Source: a virus
Virus record (IMG/VR): IMGVR_UViG_3300027742_000002
Location: 1-48,910 of that record
Strand: one strand, 5' to 3'
Length of the DNA stretch: 48,910 nt
Made by a program: the position numbers and the translations under genes. Of this stretch, positions 1 through 48,910 are shown piece by piece. The notes under the pieces are model-generated. The model did not search any database and was not told where the DNA came from. It saw only the letters and a program-made list of their open reading frames with translations. Every line of letters starts with the position of its first letter. The first letter of the stretch is position 1.

Positions 1-99
1 TACCCGCAATTAGTAATAAAATCGCGGTAGAAACACTAATAACAAGTAATAGTAAATAACAACAAGTAGTACACAAATGTAATGATTGTTAAACCAAAT
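1..99. repeat. Left copy of a 99-bp direct terminal redundancy, identical to 48812..48910
   Basis: Comparing the first 99 bases (tacccgcaattagtaataaaatcgcgg...gttaaaccaaat) with the last 99 bases of the window by eye shows an exact match. Confidence 0.9.
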
Positions 100-115
100 G
101 TATACCAAATATAAT
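86..115 (+). promoter_or_regulatory. Candidate sigma70-type early promoter (TTGTTA, 18-nt spacer, TATAAT)
   Basis: TTGTTA lies at 86..91 and a perfect TATAAT at 110..115. It sits in the non-coding left end and points towards the early genes. The 18-nt spacer is slightly long and the -35 is imperfect. Confidence 0.3.
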
Positions 116-129
116 CAAATAGACCAAAT
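93..129. repeat. Four phased A(C/T)CAAAT repeats with 9 to 11 bp spacing
   Basis: ACCAAAT occurs at 93..99, 104..110 and 123..129, and ATCAAAT at 114..120. The roughly 10-bp period suggests a binding array or intrinsically bent DNA. Confidence 0.6.
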
Positions 130-225
130 ATTAAAAAGTGGTAGTAAATGTGAGGAGGTACTCCCTCCACACACCAACAAATAGTTTCCCCCATAGGTAC
201 CTTCATAACACTATATAACCATAGT

Positions 226-240
226 CATGTGTAACACATG
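226..240. promoter_or_regulatory. Perfect 15-bp palindrome CATGTGT-A-ACACATG (operator-like)
   Basis: The palindrome was read directly. It is followed by the inverted repeat GTTAC..GTAAC and a second GTAACAC copy at about 254. Confidence 0.5.
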
Positions 241-271
241 GTTACTACGTTGGTAACACCTGTGGTCTTGG

Positions 272-299
272 TGGGCTGCGCCCAGATATGTCTCTTTTG
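272..299 (+). terminator. Small GC hairpin plus ATATGTCTCTTTTG motif (copy 1), candidate intrinsic terminator or attenuator
   Basis: The stem-loop is TGGGC-TGC-GCCCA at 272..284, followed by ATATGTCTCTTTTG at 286..299. The motif matches 13 of 14 bases of the copy at 1077..1090. Confidence 0.4.
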
Positions 300-1145: not shown

Positions 1146-3320
1146 ATGAAAACATCAGTAAATGAAGTAGCAACATCATTAACAGTAGTACAACCTCAAC
1201 TGTCTTTCGTGTCACAATCAGTAGCGAAAGCATTAAAGATAGATGATGTACAAGGTGAGGTTAATAACTTACTGGATCAAGCACGTAATAACATTGGTCG
1301 CTTTGAAGCAACTGATGAGTGGTTAGCGAACAAGCTAACCGAGCTACCAACAGTGATAGAGGGTGACGTTAAGATAATGTACACAGACAGCCGTGACTTT
1401 AGACAAGTTAAGGATCAATCATTGTCTGAATCATTATGGGTTATTGTACTAAAGCAAGTACAATACCATTTATCGGTTAACTATGATCTGTTATCCACAG
1501 CGTTTGCTAACTGGATTAACGACAACGTGTATACCGAGCATGAGGTGTTGGGTGTGAGTGAATATCAGCGAGTAGAGATAGAATCCTCGTCTATGGTATC
1601 CGTAGCAAAGAACTACCTCGTAGCAATGCAACAGCTAGGTATAATCGACAAGAACCTAGTTAAGAAAGTTATTCGATTACAAGCTGGTAACAACATTACA
1701 GCCAAGGTGTACGAAATAACACCTGAGTTCACTAGTGAGCTTAATGAGTTAATCGAAGAACTCCGTGAGAAAGCAGCGTATAAATGTGCTCCGTTAGAAC
1801 ATGTACCACAAGATTGGGAAAACATGAGAGTAGGAGTTGCGGATAACACCAACATGAAGCTTGTGGCCAGAGCTAAGGTCAAGTCGAACTCTGTATCAAA
1901 GCATGTACTTAGTGCGGTGAATAAACTACAGCGTGTTAAGTTTACTGTCTCACCTTGTATTCTTGAAGCAGCTAAAGATATGACCATGAACAAATCACTG
2001 TTCACACAACAAGAGTACAAACATCGTTTCTTCATTGAGAAAGAGGTGAGTAAAGAAGCCTTTGAGTTGTACAATGAGATACAACACTACGCTGGTAAAG
2101 AGTTTTACTTCCCAGTGACAATGGACACACGTGGTCGAATGTACTACCGAGGTGGTATGTTATCGCCACAAGGTGTTGACTTCTGTAAAGCAGCATTCCA
2201 ATTTGCTGAATACAAGCCACTAGGTAAGCAGGGCTATAAAGCGATCTGTTTACACACTGCTAACGTGTGCGGTATGGATGGCGAATCTATCGATGATCGG
2301 GTCAAGTGGGTACAGGACAATTGGGAAACAATTATCTCCGTATCCACTCACAGGGACATCAGGAAGCGATTTCAGGGCGCTGATGTGTTTCAGGCACTCG
2401 TAGCCTGCCTTGAGCTTAAAAGGCTGTCAGTAGGCTCTCAGGCATGGGAGGATCGAACCTCGAATTTAGTCTGTCATGTGGACGGAACCTGTAATGGGTT
2501 GCAGCACATGGCAGCGATCACTGGAGACAGAGCAACAGCAACCGCTGTGAACTGTGTAGAATCAACAAACAGCGACAAACCAGCAGATGTGTATGGATTG
2601 GTTGCAAAGGCAGCCGAAGAACATGCAGTTGGTACACCGTTAGAGTTAATCAAGCAATACGGTAGAGGTATGTCAAAAAATCCGGTGATGATTACAAGCT
2701 ATGGCGCAACTGAAACCACAGTGAAAGCGAACACAGTTACATACCTCAAGAAGCAAGGACAGAACGTAACTAATGCTGAGGATATAGGTGATGCTTATCT
2801 AACCTCTATTGAAGAGACAGCAGGAGCGGTTACTCAACTAACCGACGCATTAAGCACACGTGTACAATTCGCAGTAGCAGCGGGTATGAAGAAGTTTACA
2901 TGGAGAACAGCGGATGGGTTCTTAGCATCCACTCGTTACGATGATGATGAACAGATGGCTGTACGAGTTGGTACATTTTACACTCGTAAGCGTAACATGG
3001 GTTCAGCACCACTTGATGCTCGTAAGACAGCACAAGCAATGGCTCCTAACTTCGTACACAGTATTGATGCAACACACCTCCGTATGGTAATCAACGAGTG
3101 CGACCATGACCTAGTAGCAGTACACGATTCAATTGGGTCACATCCTGGGGATTACTTCGAGACATCACGGGTAATTCGTAAAACATTCGCAGCATTGCAT
3201 AACGAATACGACGCACTTGCAGACCTTTGTGCAAGTATGAAGCAACCTGTACCTGAATTTCCACGTAACGGTGATTACAATGCTAACGAAGCGTTGAAAT
3301 CAGCTTACATATTTTCTTAA
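1146..3320 (+). CDS. Single-subunit T7-type DNA-directed RNA polymerase, copy 1 (724 aa, divergent and compact)
   Basis: Palm motifs are present: HVDGTCNGLQHMAAITGD (motif A, Asp at about aa 446), GRGMSKNPVMITSYGAT (motif B Lys/Tyr), PNFVHSIDATHLR, and VAVHDSIGSH (motif C, Asp at about aa 661). The C-terminus is ...AYIFS, compared with FAFA in T7. Confidence 0.9.
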   Translation: MKTSVNEVATSLTVVQPQLSFVSQSVAKALKIDDVQGEVNNLLDQARNNIGRFEATDEWLANKLTELPTVIEGDVKIMYTDSRDFRQVKDQSLSESLWVIVLKQVQYHLSVNYDLLSTAFANWINDNVYTEHEVLGVSEYQRVEIESSSMVSVAKNYLVAMQQLGIIDKNLVKKVIRLQAGNNITAKVYEITPEFTSELNELIEELREKAAYKCAPLEHVPQDWENMRVGVADNTNMKLVARAKVKSNSVSKHVLSAVNKLQRVKFTVSPCILEAAKDMTMNKSLFTQQEYKHRFFIEKEVSKEAFELYNEIQHYAGKEFYFPVTMDTRGRMYYRGGMLSPQGVDFCKAAFQFAEYKPLGKQGYKAICLHTANVCGMDGESIDDRVKWVQDNWETIISVSTHRDIRKRFQGADVFQALVACLELKRLSVGSQAWEDRTSNLVCHVDGTCNGLQHMAAITGDRATATAVNCVESTNSDKPADVYGLVAKAAEEHAVGTPLELIKQYGRGMSKNPVMITSYGATETTVKANTVTYLKKQGQNVTNAEDIGDAYLTSIEETAGAVTQLTDALSTRVQFAVAAGMKKFTWRTADGFLASTRYDDDEQMAVRVGTFYTRKRNMGSAPLDARKTAQAMAPNFVHSIDATHLRMVINECDHDLVAVHDSIGSHPGDYFETSRVIRKTFAALHNEYDALADLCASMKQPVPEFPRNGDYNANEALKSAYIFS

Positions 3321-6287: not shown

Positions 6288-6644
6288 AATAAACACGGGC
6301 TAATAACCTGAGTTAATTGGGGGTGGTGGTAGATGTAAATTTGCCATCATCTCTAACAATATAAATAACAAACATAAATAAACATAAACAATATAAGTAA
6401 AGTTAGTTCACTTACAACTGTGCTGGAAAGCACGGAACGGTAACTATAGTAAAGATTCTAGGCACAAAGCACCACAGAGTGTGGAAGACAGCAGCATATC
6501 TATTACTATATCTATTGTTATTACACAGTGTGGAATCCAATGTATTGACTCATACAAGATTGAGTATACTACGAGAAAGCACTGCCTCTGTTACCAATTG
6601 AGGGTACAGTCTGTAAGTGAATTAACGAAGTATAGGACAACAAC
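6288..6644. other. AT-rich non-coding region with short direct repeats, a candidate replication origin or regulatory region
   Basis: An AT-rich run (ataaataacaaacataaataaacataaacaatataag) is present. ATATCTATT occurs twice. CACAG(A)GTGTGGAA occurs twice, containing the weak DnaA-box-like TGTGGAAGA at 6480..6488 and TGTGGAATC at 6529..6537. The hairpin GTGCT-GGAA-AGCAC lies at about 6420. The region sits directly upstream of the primase gene. Confidence 0.35.
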
Positions 6645-21071: not shown

Positions 21072-23465
21072 ATGAACTTGAGTCAGCAAGTCGAGTGGGA
21101 AAAGGAATGTCAACGCCGTGGATCAGAACGATACTACGCAAACCAAGACAGACTTAGAGAAAAGAATCAGGGAGACACAACAGATGTTATGTCTTACCTT
21201 ATTAAAGATAGACTAGAGGACTCAGCAGACTACTTAGAAGATTTAGTTAAAAGTGGTTCTCGTGGAAGAGCAGCAAGCTACAACACTATTATTAGGAGTG
21301 TAGCCCAAGACGACTACTTGAAGATAGCGTACATAGGCTTAAAGGCAGTACTCAAAGCTATTCAAGTTCGTGAGAAGAATACTGTATTAAAAGTGACATT
21401 AGATATTGCAGCACGTATAGAAGCTGATATGAAATGTCAAATGTTTGAAGCAGCACATCCAGAATACTATGATACTGTAAGACGATCATTCGCAGAACAG
21501 AATGTTACAGATTACGCACACAAACATAAAGTATTAATGAAGAAGTTTGGTGACTTTGAAATAGAATGGTATGACTGGTCTCCAACCGAGAAGGTTCAGA
21601 TAGGTGTAAGGATTCTACGAGCGATACTAAATGTATTTGGAGACATAATCTTCATGTATACAGAACGTAGCCGTGGTAAGACTACTAATAAGTTAGACAC
21701 AACAGTACAGTTTGATGAATGGGCAGCAGAATTCGAGAAAGAACGAGGGTTACTAAACCCAACATACCTGCCATTAAAAGTACCACCAAGACCGTGGACT
21801 TCATTAACAGAGGGTGGATACCATACACCACACCTACGACTAAGGTTTGTGAAAACTAAAGGTAACGATCATAAAGAATTCGTAGAACAACACATACCAC
21901 ACAAGCACATTAGAGCAGTTAACAAGATGCAACGTACAGCGTGGCAAATTAATGACACTGTGTTAAAAGTACAAGAAGAGATATATCACAAAGGGTTAGG
22001 TATAGGGATGCCATCCAAGGAAAGGATAGAACCACCCACATTCCCAGAGCATCTAAAGTCTATTGACAAAGACGATCTAACAGACGATCAAAAAGATGAG
22101 ATTAGAAATTGGAAGATAATAGCCAAACGGTGTTACGGAAGAGAGCAACAACGTAAAGGTCAAGTATTAGCATTCATCCAAGGTCACAAGTTAGCTAAGG
22201 AGCTAAGAGATTGGGAACGGTTGTACTTCGCATATACATGTGACTTCCGAGGACGTATATATTGTGCGACATCAGGACTATCACCACAGGGAGCAGACAC
22301 AGCAAAAGGTCTGTTAAGATTCGCAAAGTCTGTAGTGTTAGGTAAAGATGGAGTCAAGTGGTTAGCCATACATGGAGCTAACACATTTGGTGAAGACAAG
22401 TTGACATATAAAGATAGAGTAAATTGGATCAACGAACACGAACCATATATAAAACAGGTAGTATCAGACCCAATATCACACCGTGACTTCTGGGGTAGTG
22501 CAGACAAACCATACCAGTTTCTAGCATTCTGTTTCGAGTGGGCTAATTGTGATTATGGTAGAGACCACAACGCAACAGGACAATTACCAGTTGGATTAGA
22601 TGGTAGTTGTAATGGACTGCAACATTTCTCAGCAATGTTACGAGACGAAGTAGGAGCAGCCGCTACAAACTTAATGCCTTGTAGTACTCCAGAGGATATA
22701 TATCAACAAGTTGCAGATGTAACCACAGAGAAGCTAAAAGAGATAGACGACCCAAGAGCTGAAAAGTGGTTGAAAGTTGGTGTAGCAAGAAGTTGTGCTA
22801 AACGACCAGTAATGACTCTCCCGTATGGAGCAACACAGCAATCAGCACGTACTTATATTATGGAGTATGTGATGGACAACTGGAGTAAGTTTGAACTAGA
22901 TGAATCACACCAATGGGACTTCGCACGATTCTTAACACCTATACTATGGGAATCAATTAGTGAAGTAGTAATAGCAGCGCGAGAAGGTATGGACTGGTTA
23001 CAGAAGAACTCAGGAAGAGACTACGCTAAATGGTTAACACCATTGGATTTCCCAGTATACCAGTACTATAAGAAAGTGGATGCAACCAGAGTAGTAACAC
23101 AGCTAGACGGTAAAGTAGAGATATGGTTACGGGACTTCAACAGAGAAGGAGAACCCGCGTATAGTAAACAACGTAACGGGATAGCTCCAAACTTTGTACA
23201 CAGTATAGACAGTACACATATGGTAATGACTATTAATGGTACAGATGTAGACAGTTACGCAATGATACATGACGACTTTGGAACACATGCAGGAAACACA
23301 GAAAGACTATTTAAAGCTATCCGTAAGTCTTTCTTAATACTGTATAAGAACCATAACCCAATGCGAGAATGGGCTGAACAAATGGGTGTAGACGTAATGA
23401 CTATGCCAAAAGAAGGGTCATATAATATCGAGAACATCGAGAAAGCAGACTTTTTCTTTGGGTAA
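21072..23465 (+). CDS. Single-subunit T7-type DNA-directed RNA polymerase, copy 2 (797 aa, phiKMV-like position)
   Basis: The motifs are LDGSCNGLQHFSAMLRDEVG (Asp at about aa 510), ARSCAKRPVMTLPYGAT, FPVYQYYKK...GIAPNFVHSIDSTHMV and MIHDDFGTH. The C-terminus is ...ADFFFG. Confidence 0.92.
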   Translation: MNLSQQVEWEKECQRRGSERYYANQDRLREKNQGDTTDVMSYLIKDRLEDSADYLEDLVKSGSRGRAASYNTIIRSVAQDDYLKIAYIGLKAVLKAIQVREKNTVLKVTLDIAARIEADMKCQMFEAAHPEYYDTVRRSFAEQNVTDYAHKHKVLMKKFGDFEIEWYDWSPTEKVQIGVRILRAILNVFGDIIFMYTERSRGKTTNKLDTTVQFDEWAAEFEKERGLLNPTYLPLKVPPRPWTSLTEGGYHTPHLRLRFVKTKGNDHKEFVEQHIPHKHIRAVNKMQRTAWQINDTVLKVQEEIYHKGLGIGMPSKERIEPPTFPEHLKSIDKDDLTDDQKDEIRNWKIIAKRCYGREQQRKGQVLAFIQGHKLAKELRDWERLYFAYTCDFRGRIYCATSGLSPQGADTAKGLLRFAKSVVLGKDGVKWLAIHGANTFGEDKLTYKDRVNWINEHEPYIKQVVSDPISHRDFWGSADKPYQFLAFCFEWANCDYGRDHNATGQLPVGLDGSCNGLQHFSAMLRDEVGAAATNLMPCSTPEDIYQQVADVTTEKLKEIDDPRAEKWLKVGVARSCAKRPVMTLPYGATQQSARTYIMEYVMDNWSKFELDESHQWDFARFLTPILWESISEVVIAAREGMDWLQKNSGRDYAKWLTPLDFPVYQYYKKVDATRVVTQLDGKVEIWLRDFNREGEPAYSKQRNGIAPNFVHSIDSTHMVMTINGTDVDSYAMIHDDFGTHAGNTERLFKAIRKSFLILYKNHNPMREWAEQMGVDVMTMPKEGSYNIENIEKADFFFG

Positions 23466-39785: not shown

Positions 39786-41474
39786 ATGTCATTACAAGTA
39801 AAACACCGTAGGGGAACAACCGCTGAGATAGAAGCATTCACACCGGCGGTGGGTGAGTTCATAATGGACACACAAACTAAGAGCCTAGTGCTGGGTGATG
39901 GTACGAAGCAGGGAGGACATAGACAGGTAACAAGAGCAGATATAGTAAATAATCTATCGACACTACCAATAGCAAAAGCGCAAGATTTGGAGATAGGAGA
40001 CCTTATTACTACTTCTGGGTATGTGACTCTCGGAGACGGGGGTGGTGCCACTTACAGAGTGGTGGCAGCTAGAGAAGTAGACGGATTTGCTGACCATCTA
40101 ATGGACAATGGATTAGTATTAGAACTTCACCTAGATGGATACATAGTCAATATAAGGAAATTTGGGGCTAATGAAACTACGGATGCGTCACCATCAATAC
40201 AAGCAGCTATCAATTATACGCTAGTCCTCGGAGGAGAACTATATTCACCGAGAGGCGCGTATCCGGTGGAGGATGAGGTAGTGGTAGATGTTAGGGGGAT
40301 AACTGGAGCACCTAATAGCAATCAACGTAGACTATCACTACGTGGCGCAGGTAAAGGCAACACCGTGTGGCTGGCTAAAACTGACAGCCAGACAATCTTA
40401 CATTTCATTGGAGACAACCCTACAACTACAGCAAGCCACGCATATACTGAATTTGCGGACATCAGCTTTGGGGGAGCAACGCCAACATCGAGAACAGCAG
40501 AGGGATTACGGTTAGAAGATTTGGCATACTTCACGCTACGTAATGTGAGTTTCCATAACCTAAATGCTTGCTTAAACAATATTGCATGTTTGAGTTCAAC
40601 ATTCTACACATGTGATTTTAATGAATCAGTTAAAGGGATAGTGGCACAACAAGCTACTGGTGCTAGTGACCCAAACGCTAATTCATACTACGGTTGTAAC
40701 TTCAGACTACTTACAAAAATGGCTTATGATGGCTTCGGTGGCATGGCTAATGGACTATTTTCTGGCTGTAACTTTGAGGGTAATGGAACTTTTGGTGACG
40801 ATACAACAGGTGCAGTGAATCTTCGGATAGACGCATCGGCGGGTGAAGTTGGCCCTGTATTTGAAAGTTGCTACTTCGAGAGTAATAGAGGCGGATTCGA
40901 TCTTCAGGTAGCATCAACAGGAGGTAGACGAATAACGGCAAACCTAACAGGTGTCAATTTTAACAGGGTGTCTGGTGCTTCGTATACAACAAACAATATA
41001 AGAACTTCAGGTAAATTAAACCTTAACACAGTAGGCTGTGCGTTCACGCCGTACAACGACTATGTTCCAAATATTAGTAGGTTATGTATACTTCCAAACA
41101 ATTCATGTAGGCACGTAGATGTAGGATCGACGTTTTATAGTAGCGTAGATATTCCAACCAATCTTGCAAGTACTGTATTTGCGGGTGACGTGACGGGAGA
41201 GGATGCTGGAGCTTTTGGGGCATCTAGTTATATATTACCTGCTGGGTGGTCAGCTACACGTACTGCCGCTGGTCACTACACGGTTATTCATAATCTAGGC
41301 CATACTAATTATTCTATAACTGCTACTTCAAACGGCACGTTTCAGAGATCGGTGGAACGATGTATTAAAGCAGCAAACTCTTTTCAGATACGTACAGTAG
41401 CAGGTGGTACTTTGACGCTAGCAGATTGTAATACAACATTTACGTTGAGCGCATTTCAACCAAGCATATCGTGA
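39786..41474 (+). CDS. Tailspike 1, probable beta-helix depolymerase (562 aa)
   Basis: It has the conserved N-terminal anchor KHRRGTTAEIEAFTPAVGE...GDGTKQGG. Pectate-lyase-like GYVTLGDGGGATYRVV is present. The body is rich in Gly, Asn and Thr repeats. Confidence 0.7.
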   Translation: MSLQVKHRRGTTAEIEAFTPAVGEFIMDTQTKSLVLGDGTKQGGHRQVTRADIVNNLSTLPIAKAQDLEIGDLITTSGYVTLGDGGGATYRVVAAREVDGFADHLMDNGLVLELHLDGYIVNIRKFGANETTDASPSIQAAINYTLVLGGELYSPRGAYPVEDEVVVDVRGITGAPNSNQRRLSLRGAGKGNTVWLAKTDSQTILHFIGDNPTTTASHAYTEFADISFGGATPTSRTAEGLRLEDLAYFTLRNVSFHNLNACLNNIACLSSTFYTCDFNESVKGIVAQQATGASDPNANSYYGCNFRLLTKMAYDGFGGMANGLFSGCNFEGNGTFGDDTTGAVNLRIDASAGEVGPVFESCYFESNRGGFDLQVASTGGRRITANLTGVNFNRVSGASYTTNNIRTSGKLNLNTVGCAFTPYNDYVPNISRLCILPNNSCRHVDVGSTFYSSVDIPTNLASTVFAGDVTGEDAGAFGASSYILPAGWSATRTAAGHYTVIHNLGHTNYSITATSNGTFQRSVERCIKAANSFQIRTVAGGTLTLADCNTTFTLSAFQPSIS

Positions 41475-45396: not shown

Positions 45397-47455
45397 TATG
45401 AGTTACCAAGAGTTGGAGGAGGCTCTTGGTAGCGAAGTAGCACAAGCAATTATTGCACATAGGGATAACCAATCTTTAGAGGACACCCCCGAAGGGGAAT
45501 GGTCAGATGAAGAATTTGCAGAAGTATTAGAACAACGACCAGACCTAGATAATCTTGAAAACCTAGAAGATGACTCTGAGTTCACTCGTCTATCTAGAGA
45601 CAAAGGGTATATGGCAACACTGTCAGACACAGAACGACAATGTGTTCACAGATGGGCTGAGGTAGAAGCACTACGTGACCATTACGCTGAGTTTGGCGAC
45701 TTCTTGTATGACTGTATGACAGAGTTAATGGGGTTTAAATGTACTGACCTACAGATAGATATAGGTGAGTTCCTACAATCCGATATACGTTATGGGATGA
45801 TTCAGGCCCAACGATCACAAGCGAAGTCTACAATCGTAGCTATGTTTGCTGTATGGCAACTAATACATGACTGTAAACATCGTGTGTTGATTATATCAGC
45901 CGGTAGTGAAGTAGCCGCAGAGATTGCTAACTGGGTAATTCAGATCATTATGAACTGGGATATTCTGGAATGCCTGCGCCCTGACAGGCAGCATGGCGAC
46001 CGCGCATCCTCTAAGGCATTCGACATCAACTGGCAGCTTAAAGGGGCTGAGAAGTCTCCCTCGATAGCCTGTATCGGTATTACGGCAAATATGCAGGGTC
46101 GCCGTGCCGATCTGCTGATCCCAGATGATATTGAGTCGTCTAAGAATGGTATGACGGAGGTACAACGACAAGCACTAGAACACTTATCAAAGGATTTCAC
46201 ATCGATATGTCAGAAAGGGCGTATCATGTATCTAGGTACACCACAGACAGTAGATAGTATATACAACAACCTACCAGCTCGTGGTTACATTATAAGAATA
46301 TGGACAGGGCGTGTACCAACAAATGAAGAAGCTAGACACTACGGCGAGACACTAGCACCATATATCAAAACAATGATGGACGACCCTAATAACCAAAGGG
46401 GCGGTGGTGTAGATGGTTCACGTGGAGTACCAACTGATCCTATATTACTAGGTGAAGACGCGTTAACACTAAAAGAGCTTGACCAAGGGGCTGCATACTT
46501 CAACCTACAACACATGTTGAACACAGAGTTGTCGGACGAACTAAGACACCCGCTTAAAGCCAAGAACTTGATCGTGATGCCATTTGGTATAGACAAAGCC
46601 CCAGGTGAGATAACATGGCTACCAAGCCCAGACAAGCTAATACCTTGTGATGGGAAGTTTACATCGAGACCACAATTCTACAGACCATTTACAATATCAA
46701 CAGAGATATATGAGTACGAAGGTAAACATATGTATGTTGATACAGCGGGTGGGGGTGAGAACGGTGACGAGACCGTAGCAGCAGTAACATACTTCTTACA
46801 TGGTTACATCTTCCTAGCGGAGATACTTAAACTACAAGGTGGGTATGGTGATGATAAGTACAAAGCGTTATCACAGTTGTCATTCAAACATGGAGTAAAC
46901 TCTATTGATGTAGAGAAGAACTTTGGGTTTGGTGCATTTGCGGCAGCGTGGAGACCTATCTTGATGAACACATATAAAGAGGGTGGCAAAGACCATTGTC
47001 CTCGTATTGAAGATGTGTGGGAAACAGGACAGAAAGAACTGAGAATAATCGATACATTAGAACCTTTAATGGCTCGACATAGACTTATCGTACACGAAGA
47101 CATTATCGACTATGACGTAGAGAGCGTTACAAAGTATCCAATAGATAAACGAGAATCATATAAGTTCTTTCATCAACTGGCTAAGATAAGCCGTGAGAAG
47201 GGATCACTAATACATGATGACTCTGCGGATGCTGTAGCAGGCTCAGTACGTAAATGGGTAGATAGAGTAGCTGTAGACGAGAAGATTCGTATGGAGCAGA
47301 AGACAACTGATGAAAACGTAGAGTTCTTTGCAGAGTGGGGAGGTGACATAGGAGCGAATCCGAACAGTGTACTAGGTCTATCAAGTGACCGCTTTAAGAA
47401 GAAGACAAGTAAACGTAATAGACCAAGACCAAGACAACTACGCGGGAGACAGTAA
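45380..47455 (+). CDS. Terminase large subunit (T7 gp19-like), 691 aa
   Basis: It has an ATPase core with Walker B-like ADLLIPDDIES, a C-terminal nuclease-type region and a basic tail. The acidic N-terminal extension is about 95 aa. Confidence 0.85.
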   Translation: MSKLDDMSYQELEEALGSEVAQAIIAHRDNQSLEDTPEGEWSDEEFAEVLEQRPDLDNLENLEDDSEFTRLSRDKGYMATLSDTERQCVHRWAEVEALRDHYAEFGDFLYDCMTELMGFKCTDLQIDIGEFLQSDIRYGMIQAQRSQAKSTIVAMFAVWQLIHDCKHRVLIISAGSEVAAEIANWVIQIIMNWDILECLRPDRQHGDRASSKAFDINWQLKGAEKSPSIACIGITANMQGRRADLLIPDDIESSKNGMTEVQRQALEHLSKDFTSICQKGRIMYLGTPQTVDSIYNNLPARGYIIRIWTGRVPTNEEARHYGETLAPYIKTMMDDPNNQRGGGVDGSRGVPTDPILLGEDALTLKELDQGAAYFNLQHMLNTELSDELRHPLKAKNLIVMPFGIDKAPGEITWLPSPDKLIPCDGKFTSRPQFYRPFTISTEIYEYEGKHMYVDTAGGGENGDETVAAVTYFLHGYIFLAEILKLQGGYGDDKYKALSQLSFKHGVNSIDVEKNFGFGAFAAAWRPILMNTYKEGGKDHCPRIEDVWETGQKELRIIDTLEPLMARHRLIVHEDIIDYDVESVTKYPIDKRESYKFFHQLAKISREKGSLIHDDSADAVAGSVRKWVDRVAVDEKIRMEQKTTDENVEFFAEWGGDIGANPNSVLGLSSDRFKKKTSKRNRPRPRQLRGRQ

Positions 47456-48056: not shown

Positions 48057-48599
48057 ATGGCTAACACATTAAACATCCCAGAACGTACTCTGGCACAAAT
48101 ATCCGACTCTACTAACACTATCAACGTAATCGGTGGTGCTGACGGTAGGGAGTCGGCGTATCAACCACTCGTAGCTCGTATCACAGACCATGTAGACAAC
48201 GATGCCGGTGAAACTGGTACTGACACAGACCTAATGGCTATCTTCAAGTCACAACGACACGGTGAACCTTGGATTAAAGACGCTAATGTACTCGAACATA
48301 TAGTACAAAGTGTTGGACAGGGCGCAACTGGTACTGTGGCTGAGACAGGAGGTGTAATCGATACACCTGTAGTCACCGCTGGTGGCTCTGGATACTACCC
48401 TGCTAACACTATTGCCGTATTTGGTGGTGGTGGTACAGGTGCAGCAGCTACTATTGTTGTAGAGAATGGTGTAATTACATCGTTTGTTATGACAAGTGGT
48501 GGTACTGGATACACTAGTCCTACGGTGACATTTAGTTCACCTGCGGATACTAATGTATCTGTCTTGTACCCTGACTTTGATTACTCTACTTTTGAGTAA
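48057..48599 (+). CDS. Hypothetical protein with Gly-rich GG(S/T)GY repeats (180 aa)
   Basis: The RBS is GAGGA. The C-terminal half is GGSGYYPANTIAVFGGGGTGAAATIVVENGVITSFVMTSGGTGYTSPTVTFS. Confidence 0.6.
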   Translation: MANTLNIPERTLAQISDSTNTINVIGGADGRESAYQPLVARITDHVDNDAGETGTDTDLMAIFKSQRHGEPWIKDANVLEHIVQSVGQGATGTVAETGGVIDTPVVTAGGSGYYPANTIAVFGGGGTGAAATIVVENGVITSFVMTSGGTGYTSPTVTFSSPADTNVSVLYPDFDYSTFE

Positions 48600-48628
48600 A
48601 TAGTAATCTAATAATAGTCTAACGTAGT

Positions 48629-48652
48629 GCGGGCTGTGTAAAAGCAGCTCGT
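48629..48652 (+). terminator. Hairpin GCGGGCUG-UGUAAAAG-CAGCUCGU after the last gene, with no U-tract
   Basis: An 8-bp stem with G-U pairs was read directly, 30 nt after the stop. Confidence 0.35.
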
Positions 48653-48660
48653 ATTACATC

Positions 48661-48683
48661 ATGTACTCTATTTATGTACTCTA
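48661..48683. repeat. Direct repeat ATGTACTCTA, two copies with a 13-bp period
   Basis: The copies are at 48661..48670 and 48674..48683. A related ATGTACACTCT lies at 329..339. Confidence 0.6.
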
Positions 48684-48702
48684 CAGTCGTTTAGAAACAG
48701 CC

Positions 48703-48744
48703 TGTGGATAACCTGTGGATAACTTCTGTATGAATTGTGGATAA
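48703..48744 (-). promoter_or_regulatory. Array of three perfect DnaA boxes (TTATCCACA on the minus strand)
   Basis: TGTGGATAA occurs at 48703..48711, 48714..48722 and 48736..48744, all in the same orientation. Start-to-start spacing is 11 and 22 bp. Confidence 0.6.
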
Positions 48745-48811
48745 GTCACTTTTCTCCTTATAAATCAATGACTTTTATTTAGGGTCACTTATATAAAGGG
48801 AAACCGTAAGT

Positions 48812-48910
48812 TACCCGCAATTAGTAATAAAATCGCGGTAGAAACACTAATAACAAGTAATAGTAAATAACAACAAGTAGTACACAAATGTAATGATTGT
48901 TAAACCAAAT
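48812..48910. repeat. Right copy of the 99-bp direct terminal redundancy, identical to 1..99
   Basis: The match to the first 99 bases of the window is exact. Confidence 0.9.

Follow-up and report, generated by a model that had tools for sequence, protein, structure and literature searches.

A phased DnaA-box array beside an IHF-type site near the predicted right end of a T7-like marine podophage

Introduction

T7-type phages are the textbook case of host-independent replication and bring their own RNA polymerase and replisome. What use would such a phage have for a cluster of sites for the host initiator DnaA? The question is raised by positions 48703–48744 of the IMG/VR virus record IMGVR_UViG_3300027742_000002, where three perfect copies of the E. 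coli-type DnaA box TTATCCACA lie within 42 bp. We analysed the whole stretch of 48,910 nucleotides (hereafter the window) and compared the locus with bacterial origins, with related phages and with similar arrays in other phages.

The results suggest that the locus is a real oriC-type DnaA-binding array, made of three consensus high-affinity boxes and one degenerate in-phase site. It is followed by an IHF-type site and belongs to a phage that, judged from its genes, is a marine T7-like podophage related to Foturvirus. The large terminase of this phage is about 79% identical to those of the closest cultured relatives, the Alteromonas phages vB_AmeP_R8W (R8W) and vB_AspP-H4/4 (H4/4) of the genus Foturvirus, and these nearest cultured phages point to an Alteromonas-like host. 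For the function of the array we lean, speculatively, towards a dispensable element at which host DnaA and IHF assist DNA opening or a secondary origin. This reading may well be wrong and is weighed against its rivals in the Discussion.

Results

Anatomy and statistics of the array

On the plus strand, 48703–48744 reads TGTGGATAA-CC-TGTGGATAA-CT-TCTGTATGA-AT-TGTGGATAA and comprises the following units.

48703–48711, minus strand: DnaA box 1, a perfect TTATCCACA (TGTGGATAA on the plus strand), flanked by CC on both sides.
48714–48722, minus strand: DnaA box 2, perfect, with a 2-bp spacer from box 1 and an 11-bp pitch.
48725–48733, minus strand: degenerate in-phase 9-mer TCTGTATGA, which matches the box at 6 of 9 positions and fills the gap in the array.
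48736–48744, minus strand: DnaA box 3, perfect and in phase, 33 bp from box 1.

The perfect boxes at 48703, 48714 and 48736 all have the same orientation, with start-to-start spacings of 11 and 22 bp, just as a preliminary description of this sequence had reported. Counting the degenerate 9-mer, which is a candidate low-affinity DnaA site, the array consists of four head-to-tail units at an 11-bp pitch (repeat family D1, with 11-bp steps). Tandem Repeats Finder reported boxes 1 and 2 (48701–48723) as a repeat of period 11 with 2.1 copies and 100% matches.

The whole window contains four perfect boxes, three of them within these 42 bp and the fourth at 1491–1499, within an RNA polymerase gene. 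Dinucleotide-preserving shuffles had a mean of 0.47 perfect boxes per window, and none of 100 shuffles reached four; from the shuffle rate, the chance of three boxes in 42 bp is estimated at about 1e-7. The genome-wide count that the preliminary description had proposed therefore upholds both the clustering and its claim that the cluster is not random. Looser boxes showed no genome-wide enrichment: those with at most one mismatch numbered 19 against 15.2 expected, and TTWTNCACA-type boxes 9 against 6.7 expected, indicating that the box signal is purely local.

The spacers of the three perfect units vary (CC, CC, AT), while the box positions are identical at 27 of 27. This is a weak hint of selection on the boxes (hypergeometric estimate, p ~0.03, or ~0.06 when the degenerate unit is included). 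No inverted repeats were present in 48500–48910, an Rfam search of 48400–48910 for structured RNA returned no match, and no sigma-70 promoter overlapping the boxes was found.

Comparison with chromosomal origins

Units 1 and 2 contain the 11-mer CTGTGGATAAC, which we take to be the extended form of the E. coli boxes R1 and R4. The 24-mer GCCTGTGGATAACCTGTGGATAAC spanning these two units occurred in 74 bacterial genome stretches from Deinococcota, Armatimonadota, Poribacteria, Actinomycetota, Bacillota, Cyanobacteria and Proteobacteria. All five loci that were sampled adjoin dnaA or dnaN and have 3–12 perfect boxes within 400 bp; the 24-mer was found beside these genes in Deinococcus, Thermus, Poribacteria and Enterococcus. 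The DnaA-box consensus is conserved in Gammaproteobacteria. Consensus boxes, the extended 11-mer and the position of the 24-mer beside dnaA or dnaN in several phyla all bear out the DnaA reading of the preliminary description, and DnaA very probably binds the array. Capture of the array from a host origin was considered and rejected: the 24-mer is generic, none of the 74 stretches across the many phyla is from Alteromonas, and no sign of a transfer was found.

The preliminary description had offered, as an alternative, a phage-protein site that merely resembles a DnaA box. This is disfavoured, since arrays of the same 9-mer occur in T7-like phages of E. coli/Shigella and Vibrio, the closest relatives of each group have none, and no DnaA-type domain was found in the window ORFs tested. 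A search of 30 window ORFs (open reading frames) for Bac_DnaA_C, PhoB/OmpR and Rep families found none of them, and a phage-encoded box binder was rejected on these grounds. A phoB gene has been reported for R8W (PMC8228385); an R8W-type phoB gene was not detected among the window ORFs tested.

The E. coli oriC sequence used for comparison had a match of 100% identity in a search of 5,399 genomes. In oriC, 19 nt separate the end of R1 from the ATCAA of IBS1, in the same orientation, which equals the spacing from box 3 to ATCAA here. The window further resembles the R1-IBS1 part of oriC with its DNA unwinding element (DUE), and the phased arrays of oriC, in its head-to-tail consensus boxes with 2-bp spacers, the weak site between strong ones, the IHF site at this distance and orientation and two tandem 13-mers upstream. 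Unlike oriC, it has no DnaA array beyond the IHF site, no GATC cluster and no convincing AT-rich unwinding element or DnaA-trio run beside the boxes; it lies in a lytic phage with its own replisome and is absent from sister phages.

The criteria for the basal unwinding system (BUS) of bacterial origins include at least three DnaA-trios (NAN, preferably 5′-TAG-3′) beside the proximal box (PMC8287927). The 2-bp spacers of the array fall within the BUS limit for tandem boxes (spacer of at most 3 bp). The trio run beside box 1 is non-significant, and a BUS identity is not supported.

The neighbouring IHF-type site

48756–48775, plus strand: IHF-type site CCTTATAAATCAATGACTTT, with the core AATCAATGACTTT (48763–48775) matching 12 of 13 positions of WATCAANNNNTTR.

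The ATCAA of the core begins 19 nt after box 3, and AT-rich DNA lies upstream of the core. The sequence directly 3′ of the boxes, CACTTTTCTCCTTATAAATCAATGACTTTTATTT, is 97% conserved in H4/4 and R8W, 94% in the related locus L290 and partly in the related locus L001; upstream of it, the spacer back to the last gene is unalignable between species. H4/4 and R8W keep the IHF-type site without the boxes. The preliminary description had noted neither this site nor the parallels in other phages.

The pattern CCTTATAAATCARTRACTT had at least 120 exact matches in IMG/VR, with about 1–2 expected by chance (an estimate). It was found just upstream of sigma-54 (TGGCAC-N5-TTGC) and sigma-70 promoters, beside the 3′ halves of tRNA genes, as at att sites, and between the iterons of an origin-like family with a perfect DnaA box and an A/T tract. 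These contexts and the consensus match (12 of 13) point to an IHF site, and we infer binding of both DnaA and IHF to the array region. Among 135 viral arrays of tandem DnaA boxes, a strict IHF consensus within 200 bp was about 6-fold enriched (43 seen against about 7 expected). In one viral contig (L205), the IHF-type motif lies beside four perfect DnaA boxes.

Written as the 19-mer CCTTATAAATCA[AG]T[AG]ACTT, the motif had at least 120 exact IMG/VR matches in very diverse viral contigs, sometimes in several copies (five related copies in L205), and it looks like a near-optimal IHF site common to many marine phages. The origin-like viral family (L162, L172, L177, L183, L199, L210, L230, L231, L240, L244, L246, L255 and L269) has an A5-T7 tract, a hairpin, direct and inverted iterons and two IHF-type sites. 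The iterons vary by contig (GACCCTA, GCCCCTA, GCACCTA or ATACCTA), and in most members a single perfect TTATCCACA follows the first IHF site at a distance of about 107 bp.

Conservation among relatives

Nucleotide BLAST of 48300–48910 against 50,697 phage records gave no match, and relatives were found via proteins. The array was present in 0 of 38 terminase-related loci, and no perfect box occurred in the equivalent region of H4/4, R8W, L001, L286, L287 or L290, which are all the relatives that cover it. The preliminary description would have given up its idea if the array were absent from close relatives and its deletion had no phenotype; absence is what we found in all six. Since every covering relative is without boxes, the array appears to be species-specific and dispensable for the genus.

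Assembly and the true genome ends

The preliminary description had placed the array at a genome-end junction. The features that bear on the ends are as follows.

48812–48910, no strand: exact duplicate of bases 1–99, an assembly overlap and no physical terminal repeat.
130–175, plus strand: conserved ATATTAAAAAGTGGTAG... followed by the hairpin GAGGAGGTACTCCCTCC; by homology, the packaging cut, with the left repeat boundary at about 166.
166–285, plus strand: predicted direct terminal repeat, from homology to the repeats of H4/4 (217 bp) and R8W (202 bp); its extent is a prediction as well.

The 99-bp overlap has a typical assembler k-mer overlap size. Contigs from four samples encode an identical last protein; three of the four are identical over 1955 bp, which extend from the last gene past the array and over the window ends into the first genes, and the fourth is identical across the 910 bp that it covers. 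A second assembly, k141_747077 (48,952 bp), would have a unique part of equal length given an overlap of 141 bp. Both overlaps are signs of circular de Bruijn-graph closure, not measured terminal repeats. Because contigs continue across the junction and the 99 bp are a duplicate, the "genome end" of the window is an assembly artefact. The array instead sits in about 575 bp of non-coding DNA that separate the stop of the last late gene at 48599 from the first early ORF at 363.

Where the ends of the mature genome lie was predicted from relatives. The H4/4 record is linear, with a repeat_region annotated at 1–217; it ends in ...GAGGTGGTACTCCAT and starts with CCCTACATCA...TTTCCCCCATAGGG. The terminal repeat of R8W is 202 bp (PMC8228385). 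The window counterpart of the H4/4 hairpin lies at about 149–173, and a T7-type TTTCCCCCATAGG motif at 186–198. By homology, the mature genome is predicted to start near 166 and the repeat to reach about 285. The ATATTAAAAAGTGGTAG/hairpin element is kept in R8W, L001, L287 and L290, and the linear H4/4 record breaks inside the counterpart of the hairpin GAGGAGGTACTCCCTCC. The array accordingly lies about 230 bp upstream of the right-hand terminal repeat, as predicted from H4/4. This position is presumably comparable to the phiOR region at the right end of T7. The IHF-type site is about 215 bp upstream of the predicted cut in the window, H4/4 and L001 and about 165 bp upstream of it in R8W and L290, a difference of about five helical turns.

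Similar arrays in other phages

The array was compared by BLAST with cultured phages; 266 records were returned, by a query that favours TGTGGATAA-type pairs. The Berlinvirus coliphages P483, A7 and nasanit have 7–10 same-orientation DnaA-type 9-mers, 4–6 of them perfect, at an 11–12 bp pitch. Two of these arrays were located as follows.

L371, 1491–1616: array of the E. coli phage P483 (Berlinvirus).
L373, 1490–1604: array of nasanit (Berlinvirus).

In all three, the T7/T3-type left-end sequence TCTCATAGTT... is on one side of the array and the concatemer-junction motif GTGTCTCTGTGTCCCTATCTGT on the other. In Shigella phage A7 (MK685668; L372, L378), a 177-bp direct terminal repeat (1–177 = 39882–40058) holds 8 boxes, 4 of them perfect. 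The direct terminal repeat of some Berlinvirus coliphages thus consists largely of same-orientation DnaA boxes, and a literature search found no paper describing them there. In the T7-like Vibrio phage BD1 (PV244424, ~47146–47186; L375, 15–55), boxes lie 15, 26 and 47 nt from the early-gene end. Immediately behind its RNA polymerase gene, the T7-like metagenomic contig L245 (5278–5409) reads TTATACACA-aag-TTATCCACA-acg, and the IHF motif of the window and then AT-rich DNA follow. The primary origin of T7 lies just after its RNA polymerase gene.

As in the window, TGTGGATAA is on the gene-coding strand in four of these five T7-like arrays (P483, A7, nasanit and BD1), whereas the two boxes of L245 are opposite. 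The other arrays also share the 11–12 bp pitch and a non-coding position between packaging and early genes (in L245, after the RNA polymerase gene), and the BD1 spacing of 11 + 21 bp is nearly that of the window. The Berlinvirus arrays differ in being longer (7–10 units) and in lying inside the terminal repeat. Among the T7-like arrays compared, an IHF-type site is paired with the boxes only in the window and L245.

BLAST matches near record ends or under annotated repeats were also found in the Crifsvirus GAP52, N4-like Pseudomonas phages, T5-like phages, Stenotrophomonas phage Siara and Microbacterium phages. Cronobacter phage GAP52 (L374, 545–733) has five perfect boxes, Pseudomonas phage LIT1 (L382, 912–940) one perfect and one single-mismatch box, and phage Namago a perfect box pair. 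Tandem or clustered perfect boxes near record ends were seen in several unrelated lytic phages (Vibrio T7-like, Crifsvirus, N4-like and Microbacterium phages); in Streptomyces phage Kenrey, perfect boxes lie about 7 kb from the record end. The match in Salmonella phage BCPSty_003 was rejected, as it contains no perfect or single-mismatch boxes. Matches in Streptomyces and Microbacterium phages carry E. coli-type TGTGGATAA pairs, and because the query was biased to that sequence they are uninformative about co-variation with the host consensus. By hand count, about 10 of about 55 whole IMG/VR contigs that carry tandem boxes have them within 150 bp of a contig end.

In the literature searched, DnaA boxes in lytic phages are described for the injection-stop region of T5 and nothing was found on T7-like phages. 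T5-like phages have 8 conserved DnaA boxes in the injection-stop (iss) region of the terminal repeat, for which a hypothetical membrane-DnaA model has been proposed (bioRxiv 10.1101/866236). Both the T5 cluster and the present array are made up of consensus boxes, and both occupy non-coding DNA close to an end of a strictly lytic phage genome. In T5, however, 8 boxes form pairs 3 bp apart with inverted repeats inside a long terminal repeat and are conserved in 25 T5-like phages; the 3–4 boxes of the window are spaced by 2 bp, have no inverted repeats with them, fall outside the predicted repeat and are unconserved. The window array therefore departs from the iss type in its position relative to the terminal repeat, the location of the repeat being taken from homology, and in having no conserved 3-bp pairs with inverted repeats.

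Other elements along the junction

The junction runs in the order hairpin, tandem 13-mers, DnaA array, IHF-type site, promoter-like element, AT-rich phased-repeat tract, cut hairpin, terminal repeat and early region. Its remaining elements are listed here.

48624–48657, plus strand: strong stem-loop after the last late gene, with a 14-bp stem, −22.1 kcal/mol and z = −6.45; 0 of 200 shuffles were as stable.
48661–48686, plus strand: two tandem 13-mers, ATGTACTCTATTT and ATGTACTCTACAG (repeat family D3), ending 16 nt before box 1.
48780–48801, plus strand: promoter-like element TAGGGTCACTTATATAAAGGGA, conserved in L001 and present as a single copy in the window.
92–131, plus strand: four (A)CCAAAT repeats phased at about 10–11 bp (period 11, 4 copies), within an AT-rich stretch at about 29–150.

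The stem-loop is probably a terminator of late transcription, and a comparable inverted repeat follows the last H4/4 gene (read by eye). The 13-mers are moderately AT-rich, with a 40-bp stability of about −46 kcal/mol against a genome mean of −50.6 (standard deviation 3.2), or about 1.4 standard deviations below; they are a speculative candidate for an unwinding element.

The element TAGGGTCACTTATATAAAGGGA is followed by the AT-rich tract 29–150 near the right end. H4/4, R8W and L290 carry ...ACTATAATAAGGGCA in its place. Its position suggests a promoter comparable to the T7 right-end promoter phiOR; the element is present once, and a search of intergenic k-mers and repeats for a phage promoter consensus brought none to light. 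The ACCAAAT repeats at 92–131, conserved near the packaging cut, may belong to the cut; together with ATATTAAAAAGTGGTAG and the hairpin GAGGAGGTACTCCCTCC (92–175), they are probably the terminase recognition and cleavage site.

Stability minima lie at 48577–48620, 48740–48800 and in the tract 29–150, and none of them abuts the 5′ side of the array. Three 40-mers that flank the array, with starts at 48577, 48758 and 98, rank within the 12 least stable of the genome; the one at 98, in a tract that is among the least stable DNA of the genome, is seventh. The least stable 40-mer of all is 6358–6397 (AATATAAATAACAAACATAAATAAACATAAACAATATAAG), in the intergenic gap 6288–6480, about 400 bp upstream of the primase gene. 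GC skew climbs monotonically, since all genes are on one strand, and carries no origin signal.

On the early side, the motif ATATGTCTCTTTTG directly follows the predicted terminal repeat (286–299) and recurs before the early RNA polymerase gene (1077–1090), each copy being preceded by a short GC hairpin. H4/4 has three tandem copies (218–272) and R8W two (31–74). The motif could be an early promoter or terminator signal. A TATACACAC/TACACTC repeat tract at 308–340, just upstream of the first ORF, contains TTATACACA, a relaxed DnaA box in the opposite orientation. This site at 308 was rejected as an opposite-orientation partner of the array: it belongs to the TACACAC repeat family, which has a non-box form in relatives. 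The match is probably incidental, as similar ACAC-rich repeats of the relatives do not match the box.

All large ORFs of the window are on the plus strand. They encode two single-subunit RNA polymerases, primase, DnaB-like helicase, DNA polymerase, ligase, exonuclease and endonuclease VII, and further ribonucleotide reductase, ThyX, MazG, portal, capsid and terminase proteins. Two T7-type RNA polymerase genes thus occur in one 48.8-kb podophage: an early copy at 1146–3320 (724 aa), which is annotated in H4/4 and R8W as well, and a second at 21072–23465 (797 aa), which directly precedes the structural genes. Both match PHROG 414 (E = 9e-125 and 4e-250, respectively).

Discussion

We favour, with due reserve, the reading in which the array and the IHF site form a dispensable element for opening or a secondary origin. 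Host DnaA would occupy all three strong boxes, the adjacent pair and the single one, and would span the weak site by cooperativity to give a short oligomer. IHF would bend the adjoining DNA, and the two proteins would destabilise flanking low-stability DNA. The opened DNA could then be an entry point for the phage's self-loading helicase and its primase, or for the phage RNA polymerase; since primase, DnaB-like helicase, polymerase and ligase are all phage-encoded, opening would be the one step left to provide. This reading is preferred because the geometry copies R1-IBS1, because DnaA/IHF modules are typical origin accessories, and because T7-like arrays fall at the three origin places of T7, namely after gene 1 and near both ends. 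The element's counterparts would be the DUE-R1-IBS1 segment of oriC and the auxiliary sites for DnaA and IHF found in plasmid and phage origins; its place in the genome would correspond to that of T7 phiOR. Such auxiliary sites (pSC101, P1 oriR, R6K gamma, RK2 oriV) and the IMG/VR iteron-origin family (L162, L231) likewise combine DnaA boxes, an IHF site and AT-rich DNA, and the IMG/VR family has the same IHF-type 19-mer as the window. Unlike iteron-type origins, the window array is without a Rep-type initiator gene or clear iterons: no iteron family adjoins the boxes, and no Rep-like family was present among the 30 ORFs.

Several observations weigh against this reading. We know of no use of DnaA in T7-type replication, and absence from the relatives suggests that the array is unneeded for the life cycle of the genus. 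A 40-mer stability scan found no strongly AT-rich unwinding element abutting the array. The DnaA-trios before box 1 are only TAG AAA CAG, with a 2-nt spacer, after which the run breaks, and this is compatible with chance. For a primary origin, the least stable DNA of the genome (6358, before the primase gene) is the better candidate. The four assemblies are 100% identical and offer no within-species variation for a test of selection. Finally, the Berlinvirus and BD1 arrays are found within or at the terminal repeat, where neither an IHF site nor an AT tract is evident; this pattern fits a role at the terminus at least as well as an origin.

A terminus role is in fact nearly as likely as an origin, because such arrays often lie inside terminal repeats, and it is itself rather doubtful. 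DnaA, which is largely membrane-associated, would here anchor, protect, organise or help process DNA at the ends or the concatemer junction during entry, concatemer formation or packaging. Terminase would make use of the conserved IHF site, as it does of IHF at lambda cosB, and the array would be one of a broader class at lytic-phage terminal repeats. The box-filled repeat of A7 (8 same-orientation 9-mers) speaks for this, as do the 7–9 sites between left-end sequence and concatemer-junction motif in P483 and nasanit, the BD1 boxes close to the early-gene end, the matches near ends or repeats in N4-like, T5-like, Crifsvirus, Stenotrophomonas and Microbacterium phages, the T5 injection-stop boxes, the contig-end arrays of IMG/VR and the distance of the IHF site from the predicted cut in Foturvirus-like phages. 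The array studied here, however, is outside the predicted terminal repeat, on the side that enters last in T7, and packaging and injection proceed in the relatives without any such array. The model for T5 is a hypothesis too, and proximity to contig ends may arise since repeats break assemblies. At the other extreme, the array may have no host-DnaA function at all, being a neutral short tandem duplication or the target of some phage-encoded protein, for example the small terminase subunit or a winged-helix regulator. Units 1 and 2 are indeed a perfect 11-bp tandem duplication in a fast-evolving spacer between the last gene and the IHF site, and the array is found in one species only. We regard this as improbable: the probability that a random repeat unit equals the 9-mer consensus is about 1e-5, the flanks of the third perfect box are different, so that it is no fresh copy, and the occurrence of the same arrays in unrelated T7-like lineages but not in nearer relatives argues for a shared host factor rather than a lineage-specific phage protein, with no Bac_DnaA_C or PhoB-type domain in the 30 ORFs.

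The phage could also act on DnaA itself, its amplified DNA titrating DnaA or, with IHF, altering the nucleotide state of DnaA in the manner of datA/DARS2, so as to disturb host initiation and free resources. Three consensus boxes per copy of a highly amplified replicon would give hundreds of boxes, a sink may lie anywhere in non-coding DNA, which fits the varied positions across phages, and the E. coli non-origin loci datA and DARS2, which act on DnaA itself, likewise combine DnaA boxes and IHF sites (PMC4585315). Yet datA requires boxes on both sides of its IHF site at set spacings (PMC4585315), an arrangement absent here. To the right of the IHF site, the only 9-mer with at most two mismatches before the TACACAC-repeat matches (308, 317) is the two-mismatch site at 48811 (TTACCCGCA); a datA-like layout was rejected, as no consensus box lies beyond the IHF site. 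The three-box core of DARS has one box in the opposite orientation, and DARS needs this core, DARS2 also Fis sites, none of which is arranged so here. Three or four boxes per genome are moreover a modest sink, strict phasing and a single orientation are unneeded for titration (though tandem duplication could give both), T7-type phages usually destroy host DNA and so make control of initiation unnecessary, and relatives do without the array. Manipulation of DnaA is thus an unlikely purpose. Transcription control seems less probable still. DnaA-box complexes can block RNA polymerase in an orientation-dependent manner and can regulate promoters such as dnaA, mioC and lambda pR. With a terminator-like hairpin on one side of the array and a conserved promoter-like element on the other, bound DnaA might stop late-operon read-through into the junction and early region, or repress or activate the promoter-like element 36 bp downstream. 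But the strong hairpin is already upstream, the boxes coincide with no sigma-70-type promoter, relatives have a working promoter-like element and IHF site without any boxes, and a phage single-subunit RNA polymerase may not be stopped by DnaA.

DnaA-box clusters are known from phage and plasmid control regions and are apparently undescribed in T7-like phages. It is conceivable, if doubtful, that DnaA-box arrays in or beside direct terminal repeats are a widespread unrecognised class of cis-elements in strictly lytic phages (T7-like, N4-like, Crifsvirus and T5-like). DnaA, often with IHF, would then serve virulent phages in general as a host factor in replication or in the handling of their ends, although these phages have been regarded as independent of DnaA, and the window would be one instance with oriC-like R1-IBS1 geometry. 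Such arrays could mark phage termini or origins in metagenomic contigs. The question bears on the role of short repeats around T7-type terminal repeats, on the T5 injection-stop boxes and on how phages sense or manipulate the replication state of the host, and the Berlinvirus arrays offer an experimental handle in E. coli with existing dnaA alleles. Such arrays could also affect phage fitness in slow-growing hosts with low DnaA-ATP. If the module is selected at the concatemer junction, some T7-type phages would enlist the host initiator, and the same would hold for the box-filled repeats of A7 and P483.

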